From: Chthonomonadales bacterium
Lineage (GTDB): Bacteria; Armatimonadota; Chthonomonadetes; Chthonomonadales; Chthonomonadaceae
Length of the DNA stretch: 10,499 nucleotides
Assembly (NCBI GenBank): GCA_038217285.1
Contig: JBBQPO010000221.1
Span: 1-10,499 of the forward strand
Direction: 5' to 3'
The notes under the pieces: generated by a model
What the model was told of the DNA's origin: nothing
The model's database searches: none
What the model saw: the letters and a program-made list of their open reading frames with translations, nothing else
Program-made: the position numbers and the translations under genes
In this document: positions 1 through 10,499 of the stretch, one piece after another
How positions within the stretch are numbered: position 1 is the stretch's first letter
Layout of the letters: each line of letters opens with the position of its first letter

Positions 1-2036
1 ACCTCCTGGATGCGGCGCGCATTGCCCGTCGGCCTGCCGTCGATCAGGGCGCGCACCGCCGTCACGGGCGCATCGCCGGGGGTGCGAACCGCGAACTGCA
101 GCTTGACGGTGGCTTCGGCGGCGTCTGCGTTGTTGTCCGGCGACTTGATGGCCACGATCGGCGGGAGCGTCTGGTCTACCTGGACCACCTCGGTTTTGTG
201 GCCTCGGTCGGCGTCGGCGAGGCGCAGCGCCTCGATTTCGCTGCCCGCGCTCAGCACGCGCTCGACCACATCGGGGCGATAGAAGGTGGACCGAAGGCGG
301 GACGCCGGATAGAAGTCGCTCGCCTGCTCCTTGCCATGATTGATCTGCCAGCCGATCAGGTCTTCGCTGCCCGCCGCCGAATCGTAGTAACCGGTGGGTG
401 TCCAGGCCACCCACTGCTTCTGATCGGCATGCAGGAACAGGGTCATCAGCAGGGCGCCGTCTTTGACGGCGATCCAGCGTATCGTGCCGTCGTTCAGGAG
501 CGCCACGCACTTGCTGCCGTCTTTGCTGACGTTGAGCTGCCAGACGGTCGCGTGCATCCCCACGGACCAACTCTCCTTGCCTTCCGAATCGAACAGACGC
601 AGGGAGAAGTCGCCGCCCAGCAGAAAATGCTTGTCGTCGGGCAGGATCGCCAGACTGCGCCCCTCTTCATTATCGGCCAGCGCCACAGGATGGCCGTTCA
701 CTTTCGGGTGCATCCCGTTCTCCCAATCGGTGACCACCAGACCGGGGACCTGGATAAAGGCCGGGTGCAGTCCGGCCGCCTTGCCCTTGCTCTCCGCTTC
801 TGCCGTACTGTCGGCGATGCCGGTCTCGAGCTTGCGCTGCGCGGCGTTGAATCGCACGGTAGCTTTGTCTTTCGGCTGCACGGCGATCTGAACGATGTCC
901 GCGTTGTCGGAAACCAGGAACGTGGTCAGGCGCATATCGACGTTGGGAGCGGAGAAGGCGCGGGCTTTCGTATCCTCCAGGACGCCCCAGACCGGGTCGC
1001 CGGAAGCAAACAAGACGGGGCCGAGCTTGAGCGGCACCAGTGCGGTGATGGTTTCGGCCGTGGCGGGAACATCCACGGCCTTGCCTTTACCGCCTTCGTC
1101 CCAGCGCCGGATGATTCGCACCGGCAATTCGTTGATCATCACGGCAGTGCGGCCCGCCCCGAACAGTTGTTTGCCATCCGGCGACCAGGCGACCTGGTCG
1201 AATGCGGCGAACGGTATTTTGATATCGTCCGTGAGCGGCGCGTAGAGCAGGGAGAGGTCGGTGAAGGCCAGCACATTGACGTGTTTGGTATCGCCGAAGC
1301 CGACCGCCAGTTTGCTGCCATCCGGCGAAAAGGCCACGGTGTGCGGATGCGTGCCGCCGGGTGTCTTGCGGCGGATCTGCATTTTGAAGTCGGGCGAATA
1401 GAGGCGCACCATGCCGTCCAGACCGGACGAGGCGAACCAGCCGTCCTCGCGGACGGCCACGCTGGTGCAGTCCGCGTTGTACTCCTTGTCTTCGGCGACC
1501 TGCATGCCGTCGGCCACCCGCAGCACGCGTAGGCCGTCGCTGCCCGCCAGCCCTGCGATGATATTCTTGCCGTCCGGCGTGAAGCGAAGGGAGTGCGTGG
1601 CGTTGGGCAGCCCGGTGAGTCGCCGGACGATATGCCCTGACGCCCGGTCGAAGAGATAGATGCAGACGGCTTTATCCCACGCGTAGCCTGAGGTGCCGCC
1701 TGTCGCGATCAAGGTTCCATCGGGGGAGATGGCGACGGAGTAGAGCGAACTCTCCGACCCATACGGCACACGCAGCGTCTTCCGCAGCTCTCCCGAAACG
1801 AGATCCCAGACGCGCACGGTGCCATCCATCCCGCAGGTGGCAAAGAAGGTCTCGGTCCGATCCACGGCCATATCCTTGATCATGCCGGAATGCATCCCGG
1901 TCTCGATGCGTAGGATCGGCTGGGTCGGCGGCTCGTCCGCCCGTGCCGCATGGCCCGGCAGAAGCGTCAGCAGCAGCGCCATCACGCCGACGGCATAGTG
2001 CCGCAGGGTACGGTGTGGTAAGAAACGGTTATTCAT
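1..2036 (-). CDS. Exported WD40-repeat beta-propeller protein, 3'-truncated by the window edge (>678 aa); likely of the WD40 / Ig-like / caspase architecture
   Basis: Translated by hand; not in the ORF track because no stop lies in the window. ATG at 2036-2034 with AGGAG at 2050-2046. Signal peptide MNNRFLPHRTLRHYAVGVMALLLTLLPGHAARA|DEPP. WD-type repeats: FFATCGMDGTVRVWD, SVAISPDGTLIATGG, FASSGLDGMVRLY, VAFSPDGSKLAVG, VAWSPDGKQLFGAG. Then WVAWTPTGYYDS (378-413) and a beta-rich segment LPPIVAIKSP...VRALIDG. No in-frame stop seen down to base 3. Confidence 0.92.
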   Translation of the reverse strand, partial: MNNRFLPHRTLRHYAVGVMALLLTLLPGHAARADEPPTQPILRIETGMHSGMIKDMAVDRTETFFATCGMDGTVRVWDLVSGELRKTLRVPYGSESSLYSVAISPDGTLIATGGTSGYAWDKAVCIYLFDRASGHIVRRLTGLPNATHSLRFTPDGKNIIAGLAGSDGLRVLRVADGMQVAEDKEYNADCTSVAVREDGWFASSGLDGMVRLYSPDFKMQIRRKTPGGTHPHTVAFSPDGSKLAVGFGDTKHVNVLAFTDLSLLYAPLTDDIKIPFAAFDQVAWSPDGKQLFGAGRTAVMINELPVRIIRRWDEGGKGKAVDVPATAETITALVPLKLGPVLFASGDPVWGVLEDTKARAFSAPNVDMRLTTFLVSDNADIVQIAVQPKDKATVRFNAAQRKLETGIADSTAEAESKGKAAGLHPAFIQVPGLVVTDWENGMHPKVNGHPVALADNEEGRSLAILPDDKHFLLGGDFSLRLFDSEGKESWSVGMHATVWQLNVSKDGSKCVALLNDGTIRWIAVKDGALLMTLFLHADQKQWVAWTPTGYYDSAAGSEDLIGWQINHGKEQASDFYPASRLRSTFYRPDVVERVLSAGSEIEALRLADADRGHKTEVVQVDQTLPPIVAIKSPDNNADAAEATVKLQFAVRTPGDAPVTAVRALIDGRPTGNARRIQE

Positions 2037-2148
2037 TCGTTTGTTCTCCTGATATATACGAAACCGGATAAAGACGAAGCCAGAGATGCTGTCCGCGAAT
2101 TGCGGGGCTTTCCGCCTCAAAGGAAATATTGCACAGGTGTGGCAGCGA

Positions 2149-3189
2149 CTATTTGGGAGACGCTGCAAGGCGAAGACGCAGCACGCGCCATGGCCTCGGC
2201 TCGCGCACGATCTCTTCCAGCAAGGGCGTCAGCGTCTCGTCCCGAACTGCGGTTCCGATTCCGACACCGTTCAGGACATGCACCGGGGCGTCGTCTTCGT
2301 CCGCACGGCACGTACACCGACGCGGGAGGCGGCCCTCTGCGTGTGCTGTCCCTGCACCGTGCGGGGTCGCCCCACCCCGGCAGAGAAGCCACGTTTCCCG
2401 CGTCCCTTTCGGCACGTGAACGACCTGCGATTCGGCCAGGCTCTCGTGTGGGGGTGAGGTCTTCCCATCCGCCAGGGTGAGCGGCTGGACCACGAGTTTA
2501 CCATCGGTTCCGGACAGGATCAGATAGGCGCGTAACGGCATCGGAGGCTCGAAGCGTACGCGGAATGTGTCGCCGCCCGCAGCTTCCGAAGCTGGAGATG
2601 TCGGTCTGTCCACCGAAACCATCCTTGCTTTTGGGGAACGCAACGGCTGCAAGCCCGACAGCAGTGTGCGCCACTGTCCTTCGGGACTGGTGGTATCTGC
2701 GGCAATGGCCGCGAGAACGCGGCTGCCGATCTCTCCGATCAGACCTAGTGTGTTTACGCGCGGATCGCGCCGCAGGTTGGCGGTGAGATAGCGCAGAGAG
2801 GAGGCGCTGCCTGCCCACTGGCCGATCAGTGCGCGGGTTCGCCCCTCCCGCAGCAGGCGCGCCACCAGCAGGTAGCGGCCGCTCCCCTCCCCTGACCCCG
2901 ACGCGTACGAGACTTCGCCCTCCAGCGCGTAGCGCGTTGCCGTGTCGCGTTCTCCGCCTGACCCGGGACGTTCGGTGGTCTCTATCCGCATCGTCAGGTC
3001 CCCGTGGTCACCAAGGAGATGCGCCAGAGCGTTCGTGAGACGCGCCGGAAGTTCGTGTTCGACGCCTCCTGCATCGCGCAGCGGACGTAGCCTCAACGTG
3101 AATGGCGCCGCGTGAACGGCTCCGGTGGGAAGCCAGAGCAGCAGCGCCGCCAGCCCCCAACAGCCCATCCGACAGGCTGAACTCCACAT
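2149..3189 (-). CDS. Exported hypothetical protein (346 aa); TolB-N/CsgG-like N-terminal region and diverged DUF4384-like C-terminal region
   Basis: ATG 11 bp after the upstream stop, preceded by GGAG. Signal peptide ...GLAALLLWLPTGAVHA|A. YALEGEV...YLLVARLL resembles the TolB-N-like strand pattern. GDTFRVRF...AYLILSGTDGKLVVQP aligns by eye with GQAFRFEA...LVLLEKDTDGKVYLLSP of the neighbouring caspase. The CDS is well supported; the domain calls are tentative. Confidence 0.8.
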   Translation of the reverse strand: MWSSACRMGCWGLAALLLWLPTGAVHAAPFTLRLRPLRDAGGVEHELPARLTNALAHLLGDHGDLTMRIETTERPGSGGERDTATRYALEGEVSYASGSGEGSGRYLLVARLLREGRTRALIGQWAGSASSLRYLTANLRRDPRVNTLGLIGEIGSRVLAAIAADTTSPEGQWRTLLSGLQPLRSPKARMVSVDRPTSPASEAAGGDTFRVRFEPPMPLRAYLILSGTDGKLVVQPLTLADGKTSPPHESLAESQVVHVPKGTRETWLLCRGGATPHGAGTAHAEGRLPRRCTCRADEDDAPVHVLNGVGIGTAVRDETLTPLLEEIVREPRPWRVLRLRLAASPK

Positions 3190-3200
3190 GTGTACGCTCC

Positions 3201-4655
3201 CTATTCGACCTCGAAGGTCAGACCGAAGGTATAGAAGTCCTGACGTGATGAGGAGATTTCCACGATCCGCCGCAGTTTGCGCGGCTCCACGCCTTCGGCA
3301 GGGAACGCTTTGATCAGGGCGCTCGCGTTCTCTTCCGACGTGAACAGGATCGCCTTGACCCGCTCGATGCCGCGGGCATCCGCCGCGTAGTTGCGCCCAG
3401 TTGCCATCGGCAGGTGCAGCACAGCGTCGGCATTTACCCGCGCGCTGTCGATATTGCCGCCCGAGGGAGAGAGCAGATAGACCTTGCCGTCGGTGTCCTT
3501 TTCCAGCAGAACCAGCCAGCCGCTCTGCGCGCCGATTTTCGCCTCGAAACGGAAGGCCTGTCCTACCTTCACGGAGTTCTGGGCGGGAGTCATCTTCAGA
3601 CTGAACTGCGCAACATCCGTGTGGTCTTCGTTGAAGTCGTCCCAGAGCGTGCGCTTCGGCTCAGGCTTCGGATTCGGCTTCGGATCGGGCGGAGGCAGCG
3701 GTTTGGGGTCCGGCTTCGGATCAGGTTTGGGGTCCGGTTTAGGATCAGCTTTGGGGTCAGGCTTCGGATCGGGCGGAGGCAGCGGTTTGGGCAGATCACG
3801 ACCCTCGAAGACGCGTCGTCCGGCAACCTCTGCAGGGCTGAGTTTGGGCGTCTGAGTCTGCTCCATATAGTCGGCTACTTCGCCGGTGACCTGTGTTTGA
3901 ACCTCATTCCAGAGCGTCTGCGGCGTGGACTTCTGCAGCCGTGCGGTGAGAAAATGGGTGAAGACGCCGCCGCGCGCGCCCTCGAAGTCGTCTTCGCCCG
4001 ACGTCTGGTTGGCCAGTGAGGCCGTGAAGTAGACGATCTCCGCGCCTGCGGCGATATGATCGTTGCTGTCTGCGGCGGCTTCCAGATCGCGGCGAAGCGG
4101 CCCGGTGGCCGCGCGCCGATAGGCGCGTGTCTTCTTGACCCGCCGTCCGATCCCCTTGTGGCTCAGCCCGCCGGAGAAGCAGGCGTCCAGCAGCGCTGTC
4201 CGGCTGCGCGCCGGAATCGCCAGCATGGCTTGATAAAGCTCATCCCGCCCAATGTCGCTATGCTCGTCCTTTTCGCTCGCGTCCCCTGGCAGGAGCGTGG
4301 ACGCTCCGTCGGAGGCGACCGTGCCATGACCGGCGAAATAGAAGACAAAGCGTTCGTCGGGCCGCGACAGGGTCTTGATCCGGGCGAGCGCCGCCATGAT
4401 CTCATTTTTGCCAGCCTGTTCGTTTATCAAGCTTACGACCTCGAAGCCCTGCGCCTTCAGGGTGCGCTCGATACCTCTGGCATCGTTGACACAGCCTTCG
4501 AGGTTGCTGCCCTGCGCCAGTTTCGGATACTCGTTGACGCCGATGACCAGGGCGCGATCCGCCCGCGCCGGACCCGCTGTCAGCGCAGCGCAAAGCAGCA
4601 GTGCGGCTGCGCCGCCGGTACGCGTCCAGCATGTGTTATAAGTGTGTGTTGGCAT
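3201..4655 (-). CDS. Exported caspase-family (peptidase C14, meta/orthocaspase-like) protease with Pro-rich linker and C-terminal DUF4384-like domain (484 aa)
   Basis: Signal peptide ending AGPARA|D. ALVIGVNEY and NLEGCVNDA motifs. Catalytic His110 in FYFAGHG and Cys159 in LLDACFSG. p10-like region TASLANQTSGE...GGVFTHFL...QTP. (P/A)-(D/N/E)-P-K repeats at aa 289-334. C-terminal VKVGQAFRF...LVLLEKDTDGKVYLLSP...GIERVKAILF is typical of DUF4384. Confidence 0.95.
   Translation of the reverse strand: MPTHTYNTCWTRTGGAAALLLCAALTAGPARADRALVIGVNEYPKLAQGSNLEGCVNDARGIERTLKAQGFEVVSLINEQAGKNEIMAALARIKTLSRPDERFVFYFAGHGTVASDGASTLLPGDASEKDEHSDIGRDELYQAMLAIPARSRTALLDACFSGGLSHKGIGRRVKKTRAYRRAATGPLRRDLEAAADSNDHIAAGAEIVYFTASLANQTSGEDDFEGARGGVFTHFLTARLQKSTPQTLWNEVQTQVTGEVADYMEQTQTPKLSPAEVAGRRVFEGRDLPKPLPPPDPKPDPKADPKPDPKPDPKPDPKPLPPPDPKPNPKPEPKRTLWDDFNEDHTDVAQFSLKMTPAQNSVKVGQAFRFEAKIGAQSGWLVLLEKDTDGKVYLLSPSGGNIDSARVNADAVLHLPMATGRNYAADARGIERVKAILFTSEENASALIKAFPAEGVEPRKLRRIVEISSSRQDFYTFGLTFEVE
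3654..3791 (-). repeat. Intragenic 12-bp-period coding repeat (9 x [PA][DNE]PK plus 2 x PLPP) containing an exact 32-bp direct repeat
   Basis: Encodes PKPLPPPDPKPDPKADPKPDPKPDPKPDPKPLPPPDPKPNPKPEPK. GGCTTCGGATCGGGCGGAGGCAGCGGTTTGGG occurs at 3676-3707 and 3760-3791, 84 bp apart and in frame. Confidence 0.95.
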
Positions 4656-4724
4656 ATTCTACTTTCTTCCTTCTCTCCGGGCAGCAAGGCCACCCCAAAG
4701 AGACGGATTCCCTGTTTCACGGCT

Positions 4725-5672
4725 TCATTGGGTTTTCGCGGCAGGCTCGTAGGAGATGCTGGGCGTAGAGGTCTTCACCCTCAGGCCGCGCGAGATCGGC
4801 CCGCCGGGACGCTGGCCCCAGCCCTCGAGGGCTTCCTGGGTGACAAAATCTTCGTGCAGCCAGAGAAAGCCTTTGTTGCCCCAGGCGGTCGTCCATGAAT
4901 TGACCATCAGGAAGGCGTGTTTGTCTTCGTCGTAGCCGACAATACAGATGGCGTGAAACCCGGCGCGGGTGCCTTTGTTTTCGGAAGGCCGGTACACATA
5001 TTCGGGGTCGTGCGGAACGGTGTAAAACTCTTTGTAGACCGCGATGCCGATGACGAACGGCTGTTTCGTCTCCCACAGCCAGTTTTTCAGTTTTTCGGCG
5101 TCGCCCTCCTCGCCCAGCAGCTTGCCCTTAAACAGGCTGACCGTCTGCCGCGCCCGATAGCGCAGCGCGTGGGTTTTGGCCTTTTCGTCGGGCTGGGAGG
5201 TGACATCCGCTTCGACCCACGGCATATCCGCCATCGCCGCGCAGCCCTGTTTCGCCAGGATGTCGAACGCCTCGAAGATGTGCATGCCCTTCTCTTTATC
5301 ACCCATGTTGTACTGATGCCAGATGAAGGCAGGGCTGAACACAAAGCGCGGGTCTTTGCGTTGTTCGGGCGTCAGTTGCCGCTGCCGCGCGATCGAAGTC
5401 GTGTAACAGTAGTAAGCGGTGGACCATCCGACGCAGGCGCTCGTACCGCCCTGATTGCCGACCGGAGGCAGGTCGGCGGCCAGGCTGAAATGTTTTGGGC
5501 GATCCAGGCCGCGTTTGGCGGCGATATGGACCCGAGCATGGGTCGCGAAGGCTTCGGAAGGCGAGGGATCACAGCCCAGACCCTGCCCGAACGCCTGCGG
5601 TCCGGCGGCACACGTCAGCGTGGCCGCCGCAAAAATCCATAGAGAGGAAACGCGTAGGGCGAGGCATGTCAT
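4725..5672 (-). CDS. Exported papain-like cysteine protease (peptidase family C1, 315 aa)
   Basis: Oxyanion Gln74 and catalytic Cys80 in VGNQGGTSACVGW. FSPAFIW motif. His240 in GFHAICIVGYD. Asn258 in FLMVNSWTTAWGNKG. Hydrophobic N-terminus ending QAFG|Q. Strong RBS AAAGGAGG about 9 nt upstream of the ATG. Confidence 0.96.
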   Translation of the reverse strand: MTCLALRVSSLWIFAAATLTCAAGPQAFGQGLGCDPSPSEAFATHARVHIAAKRGLDRPKHFSLAADLPPVGNQGGTSACVGWSTAYYCYTTSIARQRQLTPEQRKDPRFVFSPAFIWHQYNMGDKEKGMHIFEAFDILAKQGCAAMADMPWVEADVTSQPDEKAKTHALRYRARQTVSLFKGKLLGEEGDAEKLKNWLWETKQPFVIGIAVYKEFYTVPHDPEYVYRPSENKGTRAGFHAICIVGYDEDKHAFLMVNSWTTAWGNKGFLWLHEDFVTQEALEGWGQRPGGPISRGLRVKTSTPSISYEPAAKTQ

Positions 5673-5702
5673 AAGAGAGAGCCTCCTTTGTCAGATGGAA
5701 TA

Positions 5703-5740
5703 GTGAAGCGACGCGAAAAGAGTTTTTTGCGTCGCTCCAC
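5703..5740 (-). other. Long stem-loop upstream of the protease cassette (possible terminator of the upstream genes, or a 5'-UTR/stability element)
   Basis: Minus-strand RNA GUGGAGCGACGC-A-AAAA-ACUC-UUUU-C-GCGUCGCUUCAC: a 12-bp stem with one G-U, an A-C mismatch, 4 further bp and a 4-nt loop. No U-tract follows, so the function is uncertain. Confidence 0.6.
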
Positions 5741-5745
5741 ACACA

Positions 5746-5778
5746 GTATACGTACCGCCCGTATACATACCGTATACA
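5746..5778. promoter_or_regulatory. Candidate operator/promoter with three GTATAC palindromes
   Basis: GTATAC at 5746-5751, 5761-5766 and 5772-5777. CCGTATACA is directly repeated at 5759-5767 and 5770-5778 (11-bp period). Minus-strand TATACT (5750-5745) is a -10-like hexamer with no matching -35. Confidence 0.5.
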
Positions 5779-5818
5779 AAAGAGCGGTAGTTCATAAATC
5801 TCGTAGCCCGTTCCTTTT

Positions 5819-6565
5819 TTAACCTTTCGTTGGCCCCAGGTGCGGTCGGACGACGTCGGCGCGGATCTTGTACCCGGCGGCGTTGTTGTGCAGGCGGTCG
5901 CTCCGGAACAGGTCTTCGCGCGGCTTGCCATCGGGGCCGAGGAACTGCTTCCACAGGTCGATATAGTCCAGGTTCTTGCCCGAGCGGATGTATTTCGCGA
6001 TGAGTCGGTTCGCCTCCATTTCCTTTTCGGAGTTCCGTTCCCAGCGCACCGGGCTCGGGTTGATGGAGAGGAAGGCGATGCGGGTGCGAGGCAGTTTCGC
6101 TCGAACCGTCTTGACGAACGCTTTGAAGTCGGCGAAGACCTGCGGGGGCGTCTTCCCGGCGGCGATGTCGTTGCCGCCGACCTGAAGCACGATCAGCTTC
6201 GGACGGTACGGAATGACGATGCGGTCGGCGAAATAGACGGAGTCCGCAATCTGCGATCCGCCGAAACCGCGATTGATCACTTGCTGGTCCGGGAAATCCT
6301 GCGCCAGTGTCTCCCACAGCCGCGTACTGGACGAGCCGATAAACAGGACGCCGCCCTCCGGCGGAGGCGTGATCTTGTCGGCCTCCTCGAAAGCCTGTAT
6401 CTCCTTCTCCCACTTCGCACTCGGCGAGACGTCGGCTGTCGTCGCCTGCTTGTCGGCCTGTCGACTAAAGACGCGCATCGCAGGCCGCCCACCCGCCTGA
6501 CCGACGTGCGGCCACAGCAGAACAAGCAGAGTCGGAACGAGGGTAAGGAACTTCTGTTTTCGCAT
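5819..6565 (-). CDS. Exported SGNH/GDSL-family hydrolase (lipase/esterase-like, 248 aa)
   Basis: Block I LFIGSSS (a common GDS variant), block II NRGFGGS, block III QVGGND, block V DRLHNN (DxxH). Signal peptide MRKQKFLTLVPTLLVLLWPHVGQA|G. RBS GAGGAG at 6580-6575. Confidence 0.95.
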   Translation of the reverse strand: MRKQKFLTLVPTLLVLLWPHVGQAGGRPAMRVFSRQADKQATTADVSPSAKWEKEIQAFEEADKITPPPEGGVLFIGSSSTRLWETLAQDFPDQQVINRGFGGSQIADSVYFADRIVIPYRPKLIVLQVGGNDIAAGKTPPQVFADFKAFVKTVRAKLPRTRIAFLSINPSPVRWERNSEKEMEANRLIAKYIRSGKNLDYIDLWKQFLGPDGKPREDLFRSDRLHNNAAGYKIRADVVRPHLGPTKG

Positions 6566-6591
6566 TTATGGATTCTCCTCCGGTAGCGTTT

Positions 6592-7848
6592 TTACCAGCC
6601 GCTGAGCGCGTATTCCCCCCAGACGCGGGCATAGACGCCGGTGGTCTGTTCGGCGATACGGGTCCAGTTGAAGACGGTCTGGATACGTTCGTAAGCGCGA
6701 TCGGCCATCTCCTGGGCGAAACCGGGATTGTGCAGAACTCGCGCGATGCCCCAGGCCAGACTGTCGGGATCGTTGGCAAAGGTGACGGTGCCGGTCACGT
6801 CGTGCTGCACGACTTCCGGCAGCCCGCCTGCATTAGAGACCACGACCGGTGCATGCGCCGCCATGCCTTCCAGCGCGACGATACCGAACGGCTCATAGAG
6901 GCTGGGGAAGCAGGCCACGTCGGCGACCTTATAGAGCCGCAACAGCACATCGTCCGGAATGAAGCCGGTGAAGTAGGAGTAAGGCGCGATACCAAGCGAG
7001 GCGGCCTGATCGATCAGATGCTGGCGATAGCCGCCGCCGGCAACCACGAGTTTGGCATCGTTGTAGCGCGCGCGGACACGCGGCATGGCATTCACGAGTA
7101 CCTGACATCCCTTCTCCGGTACGCCACGCCCGACAAACAGGACGATTTTCTCGTTCGGTTTGGCGAACTGGGCGCGGAACTCCCGCGCCTCCTCGGCTGG
7201 GAAGTCAAAATTGAATTTGGCGGCGTTGACCCCATTGTAGATCGTATCGAGCTTATCCCAGGGGGCATGCAGGGCATACTGGACTTCGTTGTCCATAAAC
7301 CCGGTGCAGACGATCACGCGCCAGGCCTCTGTCACCAGTTCCGTCTCGATTTTGTTGATGTAGCGGTTGATCTCCGTGTGGATGCCGTTGTTACGTCCGA
7401 ACTCGGTGGCATGGATGGTGGCGACCATCGGCAGTTTGAAGGTGTATTTCAGTTCGACGGCGGCAAAGTGCGCCAGCCAGTCGTGCGCATGCAGGATGAT
7501 GGGCTCCTGCGGCACGGCGACCCTGGAGGCTTTGGCGCCCTTCGCGCGTGTTTTGGGCGTCGTCCACTCCGTCAGGAGCCCATGCGCGCGATCCCGCATG
7601 GCGGCGTTCAACTGATGGATCTCGTGTACGAAATCGTTGTAACCCCCCGGCGCGTCGTAGGGCGCAACACGGTGGATATGGACGCCGTTGACGATCTCTT
7701 CAGGCGGCGCACCGGGAAATTCGCACGTGACGACATGGACTTCCATGCCCGTCTGTTTTGCCAACGCCTCGGACAGGTCTTCGACATGACGGGCGATGCC
7801 CCCGATGATTCTCGGCGGGTACTCCCAGGATAACATTAGAACGCGCAA
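6592..7848 (-). CDS. GT4 (GT-B fold) glycosyltransferase resembling the Rv3032-type alpha-1,4-glucosyltransferase group (418 aa)
   Basis: N-terminal RVLMLSWEYPPRIIGGIARHV, HAHDWL, TIHATEFGR, LFVGR...EKG, and the GT4 signature PSLYEPFGIVALEGMAA. TTG start at 7848-7846 preceded by AGGAGGAAGGAG. The subfamily call is from remembered motifs; the substrate is not established. Confidence 0.95.
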   Translation of the reverse strand: MRVLMLSWEYPPRIIGGIARHVEDLSEALAKQTGMEVHVVTCEFPGAPPEEIVNGVHIHRVAPYDAPGGYNDFVHEIHQLNAAMRDRAHGLLTEWTTPKTRAKGAKASRVAVPQEPIILHAHDWLAHFAAVELKYTFKLPMVATIHATEFGRNNGIHTEINRYINKIETELVTEAWRVIVCTGFMDNEVQYALHAPWDKLDTIYNGVNAAKFNFDFPAEEAREFRAQFAKPNEKIVLFVGRGVPEKGCQVLVNAMPRVRARYNDAKLVVAGGGYRQHLIDQAASLGIAPYSYFTGFIPDDVLLRLYKVADVACFPSLYEPFGIVALEGMAAHAPVVVSNAGGLPEVVQHDVTGTVTFANDPDSLAWGIARVLHNPGFAQEMADRAYERIQTVFNWTRIAEQTTGVYARVWGEYALSGW

Positions 7849-7998
7849 CGGGCTGGCTCCTTCCTCCTACATCAACCATTTCGGCCCTATTTTCGCGAAA
7901 CGGCCCCTGTTGTCCTTCCCCGCATACGCCTGTTCCAGTGCCAATCCGTTCTCTCTCCTGCATTTGACCACCCAAAACAAAGTGTGAAGGTTTGTCCG

Positions 7999-8035
7999 TT
8001 GCAACATATATTAGGGTATTATAATGTTCTAATAT
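7999..8035 (+). promoter_or_regulatory. sigma70-type promoter overlapped by a 28-bp imperfect palindrome (candidate ArsR operator)
   Basis: TTGCAA at 7999-8004; TATAAT at 8020-8025 (15-bp spacer) or TAATGT at 8022-8027 (17-bp spacer). Palindrome ATATTAG-ggt-ATTATAAT-gtt-CTAATAT at 8008-8035. The site is an AT-rich patch in GC-rich DNA, 36 bp upstream of the ArsR start. Confidence 0.7.
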
Positions 8036-8071
8036 GATATCTCAGATAATCCTTATGAGGAAGACACCTTC

Positions 8072-8410
8072 ATGAACGAACGGACGCGAGAACGGGCGAG
8101 TCAACTCTTTTTTGCTTTGTCCAATCCCTCACGGCTTCGGATCACGGAACTACTGTGTCATTCCGAAATGAGCGTCAGTGAGATTTGCGCGGCGCTGTCC
8201 CTCGGTCAGTCCGCTACCTCTCAAAATCTTGCGGCGCTCACCCGCGCCGGAATTTTGGTCGTGGAGCACAAGGGAGCAAACCACATCTACCGAGTACGCG
8301 GGCCGCGTATTGCCCGTATCCTCGCCCTTATCGAGGAGTTCTGTCAGGTGCATGACCTCTATAGCCTTCCCGAGGACGTTATCGAGGTTGAGAAGGAGCA
8401 CACTCCATGA
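8072..8410 (+). CDS. ArsR/SmtB-family winged-HTH transcriptional regulator (112 aa)
   Basis: FFALSNPSRLRITELL, EMSVSEI...LGQSATSQNLAALTRAGIL, wing KGANHIYRV. GAGG upstream of the ATG. Confidence 0.95.
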   Translation: MNERTRERASQLFFALSNPSRLRITELLCHSEMSVSEICAALSLGQSATSQNLAALTRAGILVVEHKGANHIYRVRGPRIARILALIEEFCQVHDLYSLPEDVIEVEKEHTP

Positions 8411-8604
8411 TCATCGCGTTGCGTTATCGGAAACAAGACGGTGGTCATTGGGAAGTGCGCACCGAAGAGAATATCGAGCGACACACCAGCCTGCGGCAGT
8501 TCCCTGAGCAAAACAAGGTCGCCGCTCTTGCCGCCCGTGCCCTTCAGGAGCCGGGCGTGTGGGTCTACAATGCGGAGTGGAAAGAACATGACATCTGTGA
8601 ATAA
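8407..8604 (+). CDS. Small hypothetical protein (65 aa), translationally coupled to the ArsR gene
   Basis: ATGA overlap with the ArsR stop (8407-8410). AAGGAG at 8393-8398, 8 nt before the ATG. Fills the gap between arsR and clcA and overlaps the clcA ATG by 17 nt. No family recognised. Confidence 0.65.
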   Translation: MIIALRYRKQDGGHWEVRTEENIERHTSLRQFPEQNKVAALAARALQEPGVWVYNAEWKEHDICE

Positions 8605-10207
8605 CGAAGTTCCCTCTGCTGCCGAACCGAGCGATGTGTCGCAAGCGCAGGTTCGCTCCGAGATTCAAGAATATCTCAACATCCGTCAGCAACGGCGACG
8701 CCTGTTTCCTCGCGCGGCTCTGGTGGGACTGCTGGCGGGTCTCGTCGCCATCGCGTTTCGTGCTATCCTCGCCGCTGGAGATAACCTTCGTACGGCGCTC
8801 ATCGTCTGGGCGCATCACTACTCCTTGTTCGGCTGGTTCTTTCCCGTCGGCTTCGGTGCAATCGGCGCATCCCTGGCGGTATATCTGGTGAGGAGATTTG
8901 CCCCGGAAGCTTCGGGCAGCGGGATACCGCACCTGGAAGCCGTGCTGCATCGATACCGCGAACTCGACTGGAAGCGGGTGCTGCCCGTCAAATTCATCGG
9001 CGGGGCGCTTGCAATAGGGGGAGGGCTGGCGCTAGGCCGCGAAGGCCCCACCGTTCAGATGGGCGGTACAGCGGGCGCGATCATCTCAAGCTGGCTTAAG
9101 GTGGGCACACGCGACCGGCTCATCCTTATTGCCGCCGGAGCCGGGGCAGGACTGGCCGCGGCCTTCAACGCCCCGCTCGCAGGCGTGATCTTCGTTCTCG
9201 AAGAGGTCCAGAAAGATTTCCGACAGGCGGTATTCGGCTCGGTATTCATCGCGGCGGCCGTGGCTGACATCGTCGCGCGCTTCGCCTCCGGGCAGCTTCC
9301 TGTCTTTCGCGTTCCAAGTTACCCGGTTCCCGCACTCACGGCTCTTCCAGCCTTCGTCGTGCTTGGCGTGGCGGCGGGCCTGTTGGGTGTGGTCTATAAC
9401 CGCAGTCTGATCGGTACCGTGAACCTATTCGCCAGAGTTCCGCCGAGGTTTGCTGTACTGGCATCGGCCCTTGTGGGAGCCGGCGTGGGACTCGTCGCCT
9501 GGTTCTCACCGGAAGCGGTCGGCGGAGGACACCATCTGGCCGAAGTCATTATGGATGGACATGCAGCCCTGGCGGCTATACCCGTGTGGTTCCTGTTGCG
9601 CTTTGTGTTGTCGATGGCAAGTTATGGAACCGGAGCGCCGGGCGGTATCTTCGCCCCCCTGCTCGTCCTTGGGGCTCTCCTGGGTCTCGGTGTCGGCGAA
9701 GTCACCCATCTCTTTTTTCCTCACGCCGTTCCAATCCCTGCCATTTTTGCGGTGGTCGGCATGGCGGCCTATTTTACCGCGATCGTGCGCGCTCCGCTCA
9801 CCGGCATCGTGCTGATCATCGAGATGACGGGCAACTACGCGCAGATGCTTCCGCTCCTGGTCGCCTGCTTCTGTGCCTATCTCGTTGCCGAAGGGCTTGG
9901 TGAACTTCCTATTTACGAGAACCTGCTGGAACGGGACTTGATGCGCGGGGGAGCGCTCCCAGACTCGAAGGAGCCACTTGTCCTGGAACTCGAAGTCGAA
10001 CCGGGCTCTCCCTTTGAAGGTTGTGAAGTGCGCGAATTGGGTCTGCCGCCCGGCTGCATTCTGGTAAGTTGCCGTGAAGGCAGTAAGGAATGGATCCCTA
10101 CGGCAAGCACGCGCCTGGAGGCCCATGTCCGAATAACGGCAATGGTTGCTTCGGAAGCGAAAGGGGCGATGACCGTCCTGCGGAACGGCTGCGAGACCCA
10201 CGAATAA
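8588..10207 (+). CDS. clcA: ClC-family H+/Cl- exchange transporter with C-terminal TrkA_C (RCK_C) domain (539 aa from ATG 8588)
   Basis: GSGIP, GREGP (gating Glu), AAAFNAPLAG, FVLEEV (proton Glu), GGIFAP, EMTG and PIYE (central Tyr). C-terminal LELEVEPGSPFEGCEVRELGLPPGCILVSCREG...IPTASTRL is TrkA_C-like. Start moved from 8441 to ATG 8588, which has GGAG at 8574-8577. Confidence 0.95.
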   Translation: MTSVNNEVPSAAEPSDVSQAQVRSEIQEYLNIRQQRRRLFPRAALVGLLAGLVAIAFRAILAAGDNLRTALIVWAHHYSLFGWFFPVGFGAIGASLAVYLVRRFAPEASGSGIPHLEAVLHRYRELDWKRVLPVKFIGGALAIGGGLALGREGPTVQMGGTAGAIISSWLKVGTRDRLILIAAGAGAGLAAAFNAPLAGVIFVLEEVQKDFRQAVFGSVFIAAAVADIVARFASGQLPVFRVPSYPVPALTALPAFVVLGVAAGLLGVVYNRSLIGTVNLFARVPPRFAVLASALVGAGVGLVAWFSPEAVGGGHHLAEVIMDGHAALAAIPVWFLLRFVLSMASYGTGAPGGIFAPLLVLGALLGLGVGEVTHLFFPHAVPIPAIFAVVGMAAYFTAIVRAPLTGIVLIIEMTGNYAQMLPLLVACFCAYLVAEGLGELPIYENLLERDLMRGGALPDSKEPLVLELEVEPGSPFEGCEVRELGLPPGCILVSCREGSKEWIPTASTRLEAHVRITAMVASEAKGAMTVLRNGCETHE

Positions 10208-10358
10208 ACACGGGCAAAAGCCTGTGACTGTACGATCAAATGTCCGATGTAAGGCCGCCATCATTTCAGGCTCCGTAACAGCCTGCAAAGGCCCACGGTC
10301 GTTCCCTACGGACAGGGCAACCGCGTTGCATCACAACCGGCGCCAGAAAGGGCCACTG

Positions 10359-10499
10359 ATGTCTCAGTATTGGAAAGCCTTTATCACTCCGCTGCATGAG
10401 ACCCTTACCCGTCTCATCTCTTTTGTGCCGCGCTTTATGGTAGCGGCTCTGCTGTTTGCCCTCTTTTATGCGCTGGCCTGGTTTATCCGGCATCTCCTG
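10359..10499 (+). CDS. 5' end of a membrane protein, probably MscS-family mechanosensitive channel (partial, 47 codons)
   Basis: Hand translation MSQYWKAFITPLHETLTRLISFVPRFMVAALLFALFYALAWFIRHLL, open to the window edge. GAAAGGG lies upstream. An amphipathic helix, then Pro, a TM helix and IR-x-LL resembles the MscS TM1 pattern. The family call rests on only 47 aa. Confidence 0.55.
   Translation, partial: MSQYWKAFITPLHETLTRLISFVPRFMVAALLFALFYALAWFIRHLL

Follow-up and report, generated by a model that had tools for sequence, protein, structure and literature searches.

A conserved gene cassette for predicted exported papain- and caspase-like peptidases in the Armatimonadota

Introduction

Caspase homologues are common in bacteria, and almost none of them has a known substrate or partner. 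In the accessible parts of three surveys, orthocaspases and metacaspase-like C14 peptidases are characterized by a p20-type domain with a His-Cys dyad, both shared by the caspases described here, and WD40 and DUF4384 are listed among the accessory domains of prokaryotic C14 proteins (PMC3501461, PMC5756287, PMC7475262). The accessible part of the 2012 survey already noted multi-metacaspase operons as well as signal-peptide-like N-terminal helices of metacaspases, and inferred signal peptides and an extracellular location for many prokaryotic members (PMC3501461). In view of this, an earlier sequence-only reading of the locus went too far in its premise that caspase homologues of bacteria are cytoplasmic. 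As far as these sources describe them, the biochemically studied orthocaspases are cytoplasmic cyanobacterial enzymes, whereas the caspases of the cassette possess export-type N-termini. In their accessible parts, the orthocaspase surveys describe no member that belongs, together with a C1 peptidase, to a conserved operon for exported proteins (PMC3501461, PMC5756287, PMC7475262). The cassette further differs from known orthocaspases by uniting two distinct C14 lineages, and literature searches gave no description of an exported pairing of C1 and C14 peptidases.

The gingipain network of Porphyromonas (clan CD, C25) consists of exported, Arg/Lys-specific proteases of the caspase fold, which process surface proteins and proenzymes. 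Gingipains carry Ig-like and adhesin modules and are exported by the type IX system via a C-terminal domain. The latter is not seen in the cassette proteins. Gingipains belong to C25 and not to C14, and the likeness would be one in the principle of working.

Organization of the cassette

The window, i.e., the whole stretch of 10,499 nt that was analysed, derives from an Armatimonadota bacterium. ORF calling revealed four neighbouring genes on the minus strand, to which all window coordinates given below refer. Gene A (4725-5672, 315 aa) encodes a C1 peptidase, gene B (3201-4655, 484 aa) a C14 caspase followed by a Pro/Lys linker and a DUF4384-like domain, gene C (2149-3189, 346 aa) a FlgT/PelC/TolB-N-like domain with a divergent DUF4384-like module, and gene D (3-2036) a WD40 protein. 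Gene D is incomplete, with 678 aa in the window, the start of which is the contig end. The spacers comprise 69 bp between A and B (4656-4724), 11 bp between B and C (3190-3200), and 112 bp between C and D (2037-2148), exactly reproducing the four co-oriented genes and gaps initially described. In a scan of positions 1-6700, none of the spacers separating the four genes contained a terminator-like site on the coding strand; the only such minus-strand site (6364/6363) is situated within the upstream GDSL gene. Other exported or envelope enzymes encoded near the cassette in the window are a GDSL hydrolase and a GT4 glycosyltransferase.

The papain-type peptidase A

According to profile matches and catalytic residues, gene A encodes a predicted exported, short cysteine peptidase of the papain family (C1A, xylellain-like). 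It matches Peptidase_C1 (PF00112) with 44.5 bits (cut-off 20.7), and of the catalytic set, Q74, C80, H240, and N258 (with W260) are conserved without exception across 14 orthologues from the Armatimonadota. The regions of the His and the Asn could be aligned with 3ois and ervatamin. Among solved structures, A is closest to 3ois (“Cysteine protease”, E 5.6e-9, residues 103-281), which we take to be xylellain. A putative signal peptide (approximately residues 1-29) and the catalytic domain are separated by a pro-like segment of approximately 45 residues that carries a conserved Arg54-Gly55. Neither an I29-type inhibitor prodomain nor any other Pfam family was found in A at E <= 0.01, and a DUF4384 domain is absent. 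I29-type prodomains are typical of classical C1A zymogens, but not obligatory, and short bacterial forms occur without them as well. Xylellain-type peptidases have the papain fold and the Gln/Cys/His/Asn set in common with A, and in both a short N-terminal segment replaces the long I29-type prodomain. Unlike these, A contains a signal peptide and belongs to a subfamily with the active-site motif CVGWST, whose members, in contrast to the xylellain type, are mostly fused to DUF4384 and adjoin caspase genes.

The caspases B and D

Gene B encodes a C14 peptidase of the orthocaspase/metacaspase-like type, predicted to be exported. Peptidase_C14 (PF00656) is matched with 88.6 bits (cut-off 21.4), and the dyad of H110 and C159 is invariant in 13 orthologues. 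A signal peptide ending with ARA in front of D33 is followed by the caspase domain (residues 34-273, DNA 3837-4556), a Pro/Lys/Asp-rich spacer (residues 285-335, DNA 3651-3803), a putative DUF4384 domain predicted as Ig-like beta-sandwich (residues 362-437, DNA 3345-3572), and a C-terminal extension. The GCVND motif is kept and aligns to GCiND of the yeast metacaspase; this comparison covered one residue of a putative acidic S1 pocket, which would confer Arg/Lys specificity. The DUF4384 domain scores 20-23 bits against PF14326 and thus below the cut-off of 27. Bacteroidota DUF4384 domains fused to C1 peptidases align with it; its model (pLDDT 85) has fold matches only of the generic Ig-like/CARDB type.

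Of the approximately 977 residues of D, the window covers 678 from the N-terminus. These include a signal peptide ending with ARA in front of DE, a WD40 propeller region (residues ~45-600, WD40 85 bits), and, at residues 626-672, the beginning of an Ig-like domain (Big_7 18 bits). Contig C260 of the same genome (G000) shares 22 identical bases with the start of the window, an overlap that keeps the frame of D, and contributes a remainder of 306 residues (G000:C260:7808-8725, minus strand) with the Ig domain and a C14 domain. This remainder is 87% identical to residues 672-977 of an orthologue, matches Peptidase_C14 (PF00656) with 59.4-59.8 bits, and contains the motifs SGHG and DTCHSGG. The full-length orthologue (L018:4901-7834, minus strand) has 977 aa with Peptidase_C14 at residues 737-963. 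D also keeps the Asp of the putative S1 pocket (AAKDA). It is apparently a second, active caspase. The WD40 assignment of the sequence-only reading is borne out by the 85-bit match, but D is not a plain partner, given the second intact C14 domain on the adjoining contig. Similarly, the two intact cysteine proteases proposed there are confirmed with respect to the catalytic residues of A and B, yet the count has to be raised: because D itself is a second caspase, the cassette contains three protease domains.

The scaffold-like protein C

C is a predicted exported, non-catalytic partner of scaffold-like appearance. It gave no family match in Pfam and NCBIfam, and its family comprises 115 representatives among 1.84 billion proteins. 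An N-terminal alpha/beta domain (residues ~30-180, DNA 2650-3102) of the FlgT-N/PelC/TolB-N/HpaA fold type is followed by a C-terminal beta domain (residues ~185-340, DNA 2170-2637), presumably a divergent DUF4384-like module. With the AlphaFold2 model (pLDDT 75), Foldseek retrieved FlgT (3w1e, E 1.7e-7), an LPHT ring (8z5n, 2.1e-7), and PelC (5t0z, 9.5e-5), all at a low TM on the query of 0.2-0.4. The likeness of the N-terminal domain to envelope scaffold domains (FlgT/FlgO/PelC/CsgG/LPP20/TolB-N) exists at fold level only: there is no Pfam match to the CsgG, FlgO, LPP20, and PelC families, and the copy in the window lacks a conserved lipobox Cys.

A comparison of C with the DUF4384 domain of B by hhalign resulted in a probability of 84.8% (E 6.6e-6, 57 columns) with a 61-sequence family alignment, but was not significant with small alignments (2.6%, E 0.018). 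The protein-atlas neighbours of C are DUF4384 clusters (first match 0.94, 188 of 256 features common), in which CsgG or FlgO domains accompany DUF4384 in 11-58% of members. The earlier assignment of two DUF4384-like domains holds insofar as B and C probably contain a related module, but the one in B remains below the cut-off and the one in C is without a Pfam match.

Export and conservation within the Armatimonadota

In all four proteins and their orthologues, a basic n-region is accompanied by a hydrophobic stretch and by an A-x-A site, for instance ARA in front of D. The signal peptides claimed for all four proteins are thereby recovered as signal-peptide-like N-termini, judged by hydrophobicity and the A-x-A pattern only, and they extend to the orthologues. 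Since profile searches detected Omp85/BamA (Omp85, 131.5 bits) and LpxC (262.9 bits) in the genome of the cassette, the organism is considered diderm, and Sec export would deliver all four products to the periplasm or the envelope.

Synteny of the cassette was observed in four families, the Chthonomonadaceae, Capsulimonadaceae, Armatimonadaceae, and Abditibacteriaceae, with nothing in common between the flanks of the loci. Since other genomes contain these genes in identical order next to unrelated flanks, the arrangement is not due to chance, and the co-location expected from the first reading is found. The C1 query retrieved 16 loci from the Armatimonadota, and A adjoins B in each of them. 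C is present in 11 of the 13 loci that extend past B, and a D-like WD40-caspase in nine out of ten loci that reach far enough. In eight of the 11 genomes with C, genes A and C reside on the same contig within 3 kb; a ninth is split only by a contig break. The C family is patchy and rare (11 of 301 sampled genomes, across five families) and is not found in G007, a single-contig genome from the family to which the host of the cassette belongs. Exceptions are given by L029, in which C is missing, L033, in which it was undetected, and L031, in which extra B-like caspases replace D; the four-part composition is therefore not obligatory. Altogether, gene order and predicted domains support the view that the four genes form a conserved, self-contained, putatively exported multi-protease unit.

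Relatives in other phyla and fusion proteins

The scan of neighbours covered 138 ORFs, i.e., the C1 ORF and two neighbours per locus. Outside the Armatimonadota, 36 of 49 C1 relatives (Bacteroidota, Chlorobiota, others) are C1-DUF4384 fusions, and for 23 of the 49 Peptidase_C14 was detected in a directly adjacent ORF, fused to MORN, TPR, or WD40. One further C14 neighbour (L059) was found by tblastn only, and for about half of these remote relatives (25-26 of 49) a caspase in the next ORF is absent. The proteins inspected at the remote loci mostly have signal-peptide-like N-termini. The pair of C1-DUF4384 protein and repeat-caspase in the Bacteroidota and Chlorobiota belongs to the same C1 subfamily as A at about 30% identity; like the cassette, it joins a C1 peptidase with an exported C14 protein, and a DUF4384 module occurs in both. 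The placement of this module differs, as it is located on the C1 peptidase in the Bacteroidota and on the short caspase in the Armatimonadota, whose C1 peptidase has lost it or never had it. In addition, the Armatimonadota cassette comprises a scaffold gene of the FlgT/PelC-like-DUF4384 type as well as a second caspase, which is borne by WD40. Among 15 long members of the C family that were scanned, P0089 (802 aa) and P0093 (781 aa) are fusions of C14, DUF4384, and C with DUF4384 scores of 37-39 bits, above the cut-off of 27, and seven others carry a bona fide DUF4384.

Because the genes are kept together in several families and resemble the papain-caspase pair of other phyla, the four products probably work together in the cell envelope. 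A functional connection of the genes is well supported. We favour, with moderate confidence, the reading that the cassette is the Armatimonadota version of a conserved extracytoplasmic cysteine-protease module, in which the caspases would cut the pro-segment of the C1 peptidase and a scaffold would co-place the enzymes. The WD40 and DUF4384 modules together with C might bring the enzymes into contact with one another or with an envelope target common to them.

It seems unlikely that the products are instead co-regulated, independent exported proteases that break down proteins of the envelope or the surroundings, be it for nutrition or for turnover, without mutual processing and with WD40 and DUF4384 serving substrate or surface binding only. 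This would agree with the exported appearance of all products, the envelope enzymes encoded nearby, the generic Ig-like/CARDB/CBM-like sandwich of the DUF4384 model, which is typical of binding modules, and a cassette composition that differs from locus to locus. However, the adjacency is kept across phyla while all other neighbours change, fusions of B and C exist, and a junction Arg of the C1 peptidase co-varies with caspase adjacency (see below). Moreover, C14 enzymes usually perform limited proteolysis rather than bulk digestion.

The patchy spread of the C family, the variable genomic context, and the interchangeable repeat “sensor” domains of the caspases (WD40, MORN, TPR) would also fit an envelope conflict module for defence or attack on other cells, in which repeats sense a foreign molecule at the surface or in the periplasm and the caspases set a papain-type enzyme to destroy envelope proteins of the invader or of the cell itself. 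A STAND-like AAA_35-WD40 gene and a Trans_reg_C-AAA_35 gene are convergent to the cassette just downstream on contig C260, and a TIR-Sel1 neighbour occurs at one remote locus (L044). We nevertheless consider this quite improbable: conservation alongside the cassette was not observed for the STAND neighbours, the window showed no genes of phages or mobile elements, and PADLOC-DB 2.0 yielded only the generic “caspase” model for B and D, without a match for A and C and without any system component. Furthermore, the EACC1-associated caspase model (NCBIfam NF047832) reached 63.9 bits, below its cut-off of 140.

Candidate cleavage site and order of proteolysis

In 45 of 60 C1 family members, an Arg followed by G/S/A/N/D is situated 17-25 residues before the oxyanion Gln, compared to 6% of control windows. 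Considering the 46 non-redundant members outside the Armatimonadota, a caspase is adjacent in 22 of 31 cases with and in one of 15 cases without this junction Arg (Fisher p 7.5e-5, ignoring kinship between members). Related members do not count as independent cases, so that the correlation may be no more than the mark of a single subfamily, and the Arg itself may be structural. R54 of A is invariant only among the five closest orthologues; nearly invariant in the 14-sequence alignment are R58 and P59. Non-caspase C14 members prefer basic P1 residues according to the accessible part of one review (PMC5756287). The C14 enzymes of the cassette would likewise be expected to cut after Arg or Lys in limited proteolysis, and cleavage of the pro-segment at the Arg54-Gly55 junction would release a broader papain-type activity.

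Complex prediction for B (residues 31-484) and A (residues 30-315) resulted in a median score of 0.36 (0.27, 0.36, 0.43), compared to 0.00 for the best of three controls; at least 44% of contacts are common to the runs, with a partner pLDDT of at least 85. In the calibration, 116 of 157 solved complexes and two of 215 mismatched pairs attained the mark, only 18 of the 157 but both passing mismatches with scores of 0.60 or under, and in this weak band a positive score errs in the majority of cases if the pairing is not likely beforehand. The prediction thus lends weak support to an A-B complex. With regard to the idea that the C14 enzyme matures the C1 enzyme, as proposed from the sequence alone, a conserved Arg site that tracks caspase adjacency speaks in its favour; the order of events, a caspase maturing the papain, is only suggested by these sequence patterns.

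A reverse or parallel order, in which A activates the caspases by cutting the linker or by freeing the catalytic domain from WD40 or DUF4384, or in which each enzyme self-matures on C, appears very unlikely. The conserved junction Arg fits a protease with basic P1 preference better than a papain-type one, and the linker of B consists mostly of K-P and D-P dipeptides, the bonds of which are poor protease sites. Long linkers between catalytic and binding parts are nevertheless present in both B and D. In addition, p20 autoprocessing and release are described, in the accessible part of the review, as prerequisite for orthocaspase activity (PMC5756287).

With the favoured reading, in which the caspases would cut the papain-type enzyme, the shared DUF4384, the gene fusions, and the candidate site yield a concrete hypothesis, open to testing, about which protease cuts which partner at which position in a very large, unstudied family, and they offer a first access to the function of DUF4384. 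In the Armatimonadota form, the parts are separated into single genes, which makes it useful. If such a cascade is real, limited proteolysis by the caspase fold operates in the bacterial envelope, beyond cytoplasmic defence systems. It is tempting to speculate, though the idea is doubtful, that an old extracytoplasmic cascade exists in several phyla, in which an envelope ligand acts on repeat caspases, these cut a papain zymogen at an Arg, and DUF4384 serves docking, maybe in surveillance or defence. Such a cascade would correspond, in the envelope, to the initiator-executioner logic of cell-death proteases in eukaryotes.

In a phylogenetic tree, the caspase domains of B and D form separate, well-supported clades (99/98 and 100/99), which points to two old caspase lineages. 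The clade of D takes in, on a long branch, a WD40-caspase of the Chitinophagales that adjoins a C1 gene.

Organization of the cassette, active sites and export

The genome assembly comprises 6.2 Mb in 459 contigs, and the window is the beginning of contig C221 (bases 1-10,499). On its minus strand, gene A (4725-5672, 315 aa) encodes a papain-like Peptidase_C1 protein (44.5 bits in Pfam), followed by gene B (3201-4655, 484 aa) with a caspase-like Peptidase_C14 domain (88.6 bits in Pfam), gene C (2149-3189, 346 aa) without a Pfam match, and gene D (from 2036 to the edge of the window, where it is cut after 678 aa), for which Pfam reports WD40 propellers and a weak Ig domain. The spacers A-B, B-C, and C-D measure 69, 11, and 112 bp, and the ORF calls reproduce the four-gene arrangement described in an earlier, sequence-only reading.

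Gln74, Cys80, His240, and Asn258 of A are unchanged across 14 Armatimonadota orthologues, and His110 and Cys159 of B across 13, in agreement with the earlier description of two intact cysteine proteases. The closest solved structure to A is 3ois, a short bacterial C1 peptidase. With 63.9 bits, the EACC1-type caspase model of NCBIfam stays far under its cut-off of 140, and nothing specific was obtained from NCBIfam; likewise, neither PADLOC nor NCBIfam gave a system-level assignment of the cassette.

In line with the sequence-only reading, all four products have N-termini that resemble signal peptides. In each of them, and in every orthologue inspected, a basic start is followed by a hydrophobic stretch and by an Ala-x-Ala site that typically reads ARA↓D, the assignment being based on hydrophobicity and this site pattern. 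Since Omp85/BamA and LpxC are both encoded in this genome, the organism is diderm, and the default destination of the four products is the periplasm or envelope. Scans of positions 1-6700 for sigma-70-like promoters (0 sites, 1.1 expected) and terminator-like sites (7 vs. 5.5 expected, i.e., background) were uninformative, and Rfam and tRNA scans gave no matches over the whole window. Among the sequencing runs listed as containing this sequence, 16 were of DNA and none of RNA.

Conservation in Armatimonadota

A scan based on a C1 alignment, with one genome per species, yielded 65 loci, 16 in Armatimonadota and 49 in other phyla. The former belong to the Chthonomonadaceae, Capsulimonadaceae, Armatimonadaceae, and Abditibacteriaceae. 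B follows A in all 16 of them, C is present in 11 of the 13 loci whose sequence reaches that far (L029 lacks it, and in L033 it was not detected), and a D-like WD40-caspase in 9 of 10, so that the neighbourhood put forward in the sequence-only reading does recur. Apart from A-D, these loci have nothing in common, their flanks being unrelated; a chance adjacency of the four genes is ruled out by this conserved synteny.

The cassette is rare and patchy in the phylum, with the C family occurring in 11 of 301 sampled genomes from five families; A-like C1 genes occur in 40 of the 301. In 8 of the 11 C-bearing genomes, A and C are at most 3 kb apart on a single contig, and a contig break splits a ninth pair. 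Deviating arrangements occur in L030, where 2 kb are inserted before D and another D-like WD40 gene is present, in L031, where D is missing and two additional B-like caspases are found, and in L032, where a D-like gene is situated upstream of A. On contig C73 of another sampled genome (G086), A abuts C with no B in between.

Gene D encodes a second caspase

Full-length D orthologues of approximately 977 aa are composed of a signal peptide, a WD40 region, an Ig-like domain, and Peptidase_C14, and the SGHG and DTCHSGG motifs are kept in all 8 orthologues examined. Apart from B, this genome contains a single C14 match, which is located at the end of contig C260. This contig overlaps exactly with the first 22 bases of the window and continues the reading frame (...ARRIQE...). 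The 306 residues encoded there share 87% identity with the corresponding part (residues 672-977) of the closest D orthologue and contain an intact catalytic dyad, which brings the number of protease domains in the cassette from two to three. Hence, the WD40 partner of the sequence-only reading was correctly recognized by its propellers, but is at the same time a second caspase. In a tree of caspase domains, B and D fall into separate, well-supported clades. The D clade takes in a Chitinophagales WD40-caspase adjoining a C1 gene, whose placement is unsure due to its long branch.

Two genes are located just past the D stop on C260 (locus L084; 2250-7681, plus strand), convergent on the end of D. 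One encodes a 1294-aa AAA_35 protein (STAND-like ATPase) rich in WD40 repeats, the other a 555-aa protein with Trans_reg_C and AAA_35 domains, and they are not kept beside the cassette in other genomes.

Gene C and DUF4384

The C family is small: clustering at 50% identity leaves 115 representatives in a set of 1.84 billion proteins, and a homologue search with C as query returned 12 close relatives only, none of which bears a protein name. The AlphaFold2 model of C (pLDDT 75) consists of an N-terminal alpha/beta domain and a C-terminal beta domain. For the former, Foldseek listed the envelope scaffold or ring proteins FlgT, PelC, TolB-N, and HpaA (best E 1.7e-7, low TM-scores).

The sequence-only reading had proposed two DUF4384-like domains. 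In B, the Pfam match is sub-threshold (20 bits vs. a cut-off of 27). The C-terminal domain of C gave no significant match to B in a shallow profile comparison of small alignments, but matched the DUF4384 region of B with a 61-sequence family alignment (probability 84.8%, E 6.6e-6, 57 columns). Protein-atlas neighbours of C are DUF4384 clusters, some of which also contain CsgG or FlgO domains, and among 15 long C-family members scanned, 2 are fusions of C14, DUF4384, and C, and 7 have an additional bona fide DUF4384. In the model of the DUF4384-like domain of B (pLDDT 85), the fold is a generic Ig-like sandwich, and a Foldseek search with this model provided no functional lead, returning just generic Ig-like sandwiches at TM ~0.4.

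Remote relatives in other phyla

The other 49 loci occur in Bacteroidota, Chlorobiota, Spirochaetota, Pseudomonadota, and others, at ~30% identity. For each locus, the C1 ORF was analysed with Pfam together with the two ORFs next to it (138 ORFs). C1-DUF4384 fusions account for 36 of the 49 C1 proteins, and in 23 of 49 loci the next ORF encodes Peptidase_C14 fused to MORN, TPR, or WD40 repeats; one further adjacent caspase, in L059, was detected by tblastn only. The remote pairs whose N-termini were inspected are mostly exported-looking.

A cluster recurrent in Bacteroidota and Chlorobiota (L039, L042, L043, L046, L050, L053, L061, and L063) comprises, in this order, a MORN-caspase (~787 aa), a C1-DUF4384 protein (~460 aa), and a DUF6272+SiaC protein (~510 aa), followed in all loci except L063 by an ORF of 663-664 aa. 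The DUF6272+SiaC protein of L039, the one whose N-terminus was inspected, is without a signal peptide. The cluster hints at a regulator of the partner-switching type next to the two exported proteins. Members of the same C1 subfamily are also fused to, or located beside, an FGE-sulfatase (fused in L058, neighbouring in L057), FG-GAP repeats (L034), MORN and an M48 peptidase (L069), or CARDB/Ig/DUF4214 (L036).

According to four surveys (PMC3501461, PMC5756287, PMC7475262, and PMC6426788), WD40 and DUF4384 are among the accessory domains of prokaryotic C14 proteins, and signal peptides, an extracellular location, and multi-metacaspase operons have already been inferred. The literature searched (main texts outside subscription journals, bioRxiv included) contained no description of an exported C1+C14 operon, nor did the papers therein that name DUF4384 treat this operon. 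In the Armatimonadota, the cassette is a four-gene variant of an exported papain-caspase module that the literature searched does not describe.

Possible mode of action

Based on the synteny, the cross-phylum adjacency, the movement of DUF4384 between protease types, and the B+C fusions, A-D very likely represent a functional unit. The observation made in the sequence-only reading is confirmed and extended, and its interpretation is supported in part. Maturation of the C1 enzyme by the C14 enzyme is a suggested order of action, on which three observations bear.

First, a conserved N-terminal segment separates the signal peptide from the catalytic domain in the C1 family, and in 45 of 60 members an Arg with a small or polar residue after it is found 17-25 residues ahead of the oxyanion Gln, compared to 6% of control windows. 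The 60 comprise the window, 46 non-Armatimonadota (without the near-duplicates L048, L049, and L055), and 13 Armatimonadota (L020, L025, and L035 dropped). In A this junction site is Arg54-Gly55; judging from the alignment with papain, the mature protein would begin a few residues after it. Second, among the 46 non-Armatimonadota, a caspase is adjacent in 22 of 31 with the junction Arg site vs. 1 of 15 without, a difference whose significance is overstated by the p-value since relatives are not independent. Third, the GCVND pocket motif is retained in B; Arg and Lys are the residues after which non-caspase C14 enzymes cut, as stated in PMC5756287. A complex prediction for B and A (0.36 vs. 0.00 for the best control) lends weak support in a band where the tool is poorly calibrated.

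The Lys-Pro/Asp-Pro spacer of B (3651-3803, residues 285-335; PKPDPK...) varies from ~10 to 50 residues between orthologues. A weak NCBIfam match to TonB is confined to this Pro/Lys/Asp-rich region, which resembles the proline-rich spacer of TonB. Such a spacer would keep the caspase at a distance from its DUF4384 anchor. Envelope processing, nutrition, or conflict are candidate roles of the cassette.

Neighbouring genes

According to Pfam and NCBIfam, the remainder of the window encodes an exported GDSL-type hydrolase (5819-6565, minus strand), a GT4 glycosyltransferase (6592-7848, minus strand), and a ClcA-type H+/Cl- exchanger with a TrkA_C tail (8441-10207, plus strand), none of which travels with the cassette. 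The latter two are separated by a divergent intergenic region of ~590 bp (7849-8440) that has no Rfam match and a G+C content of ~0.56 vs. 0.62-0.65.
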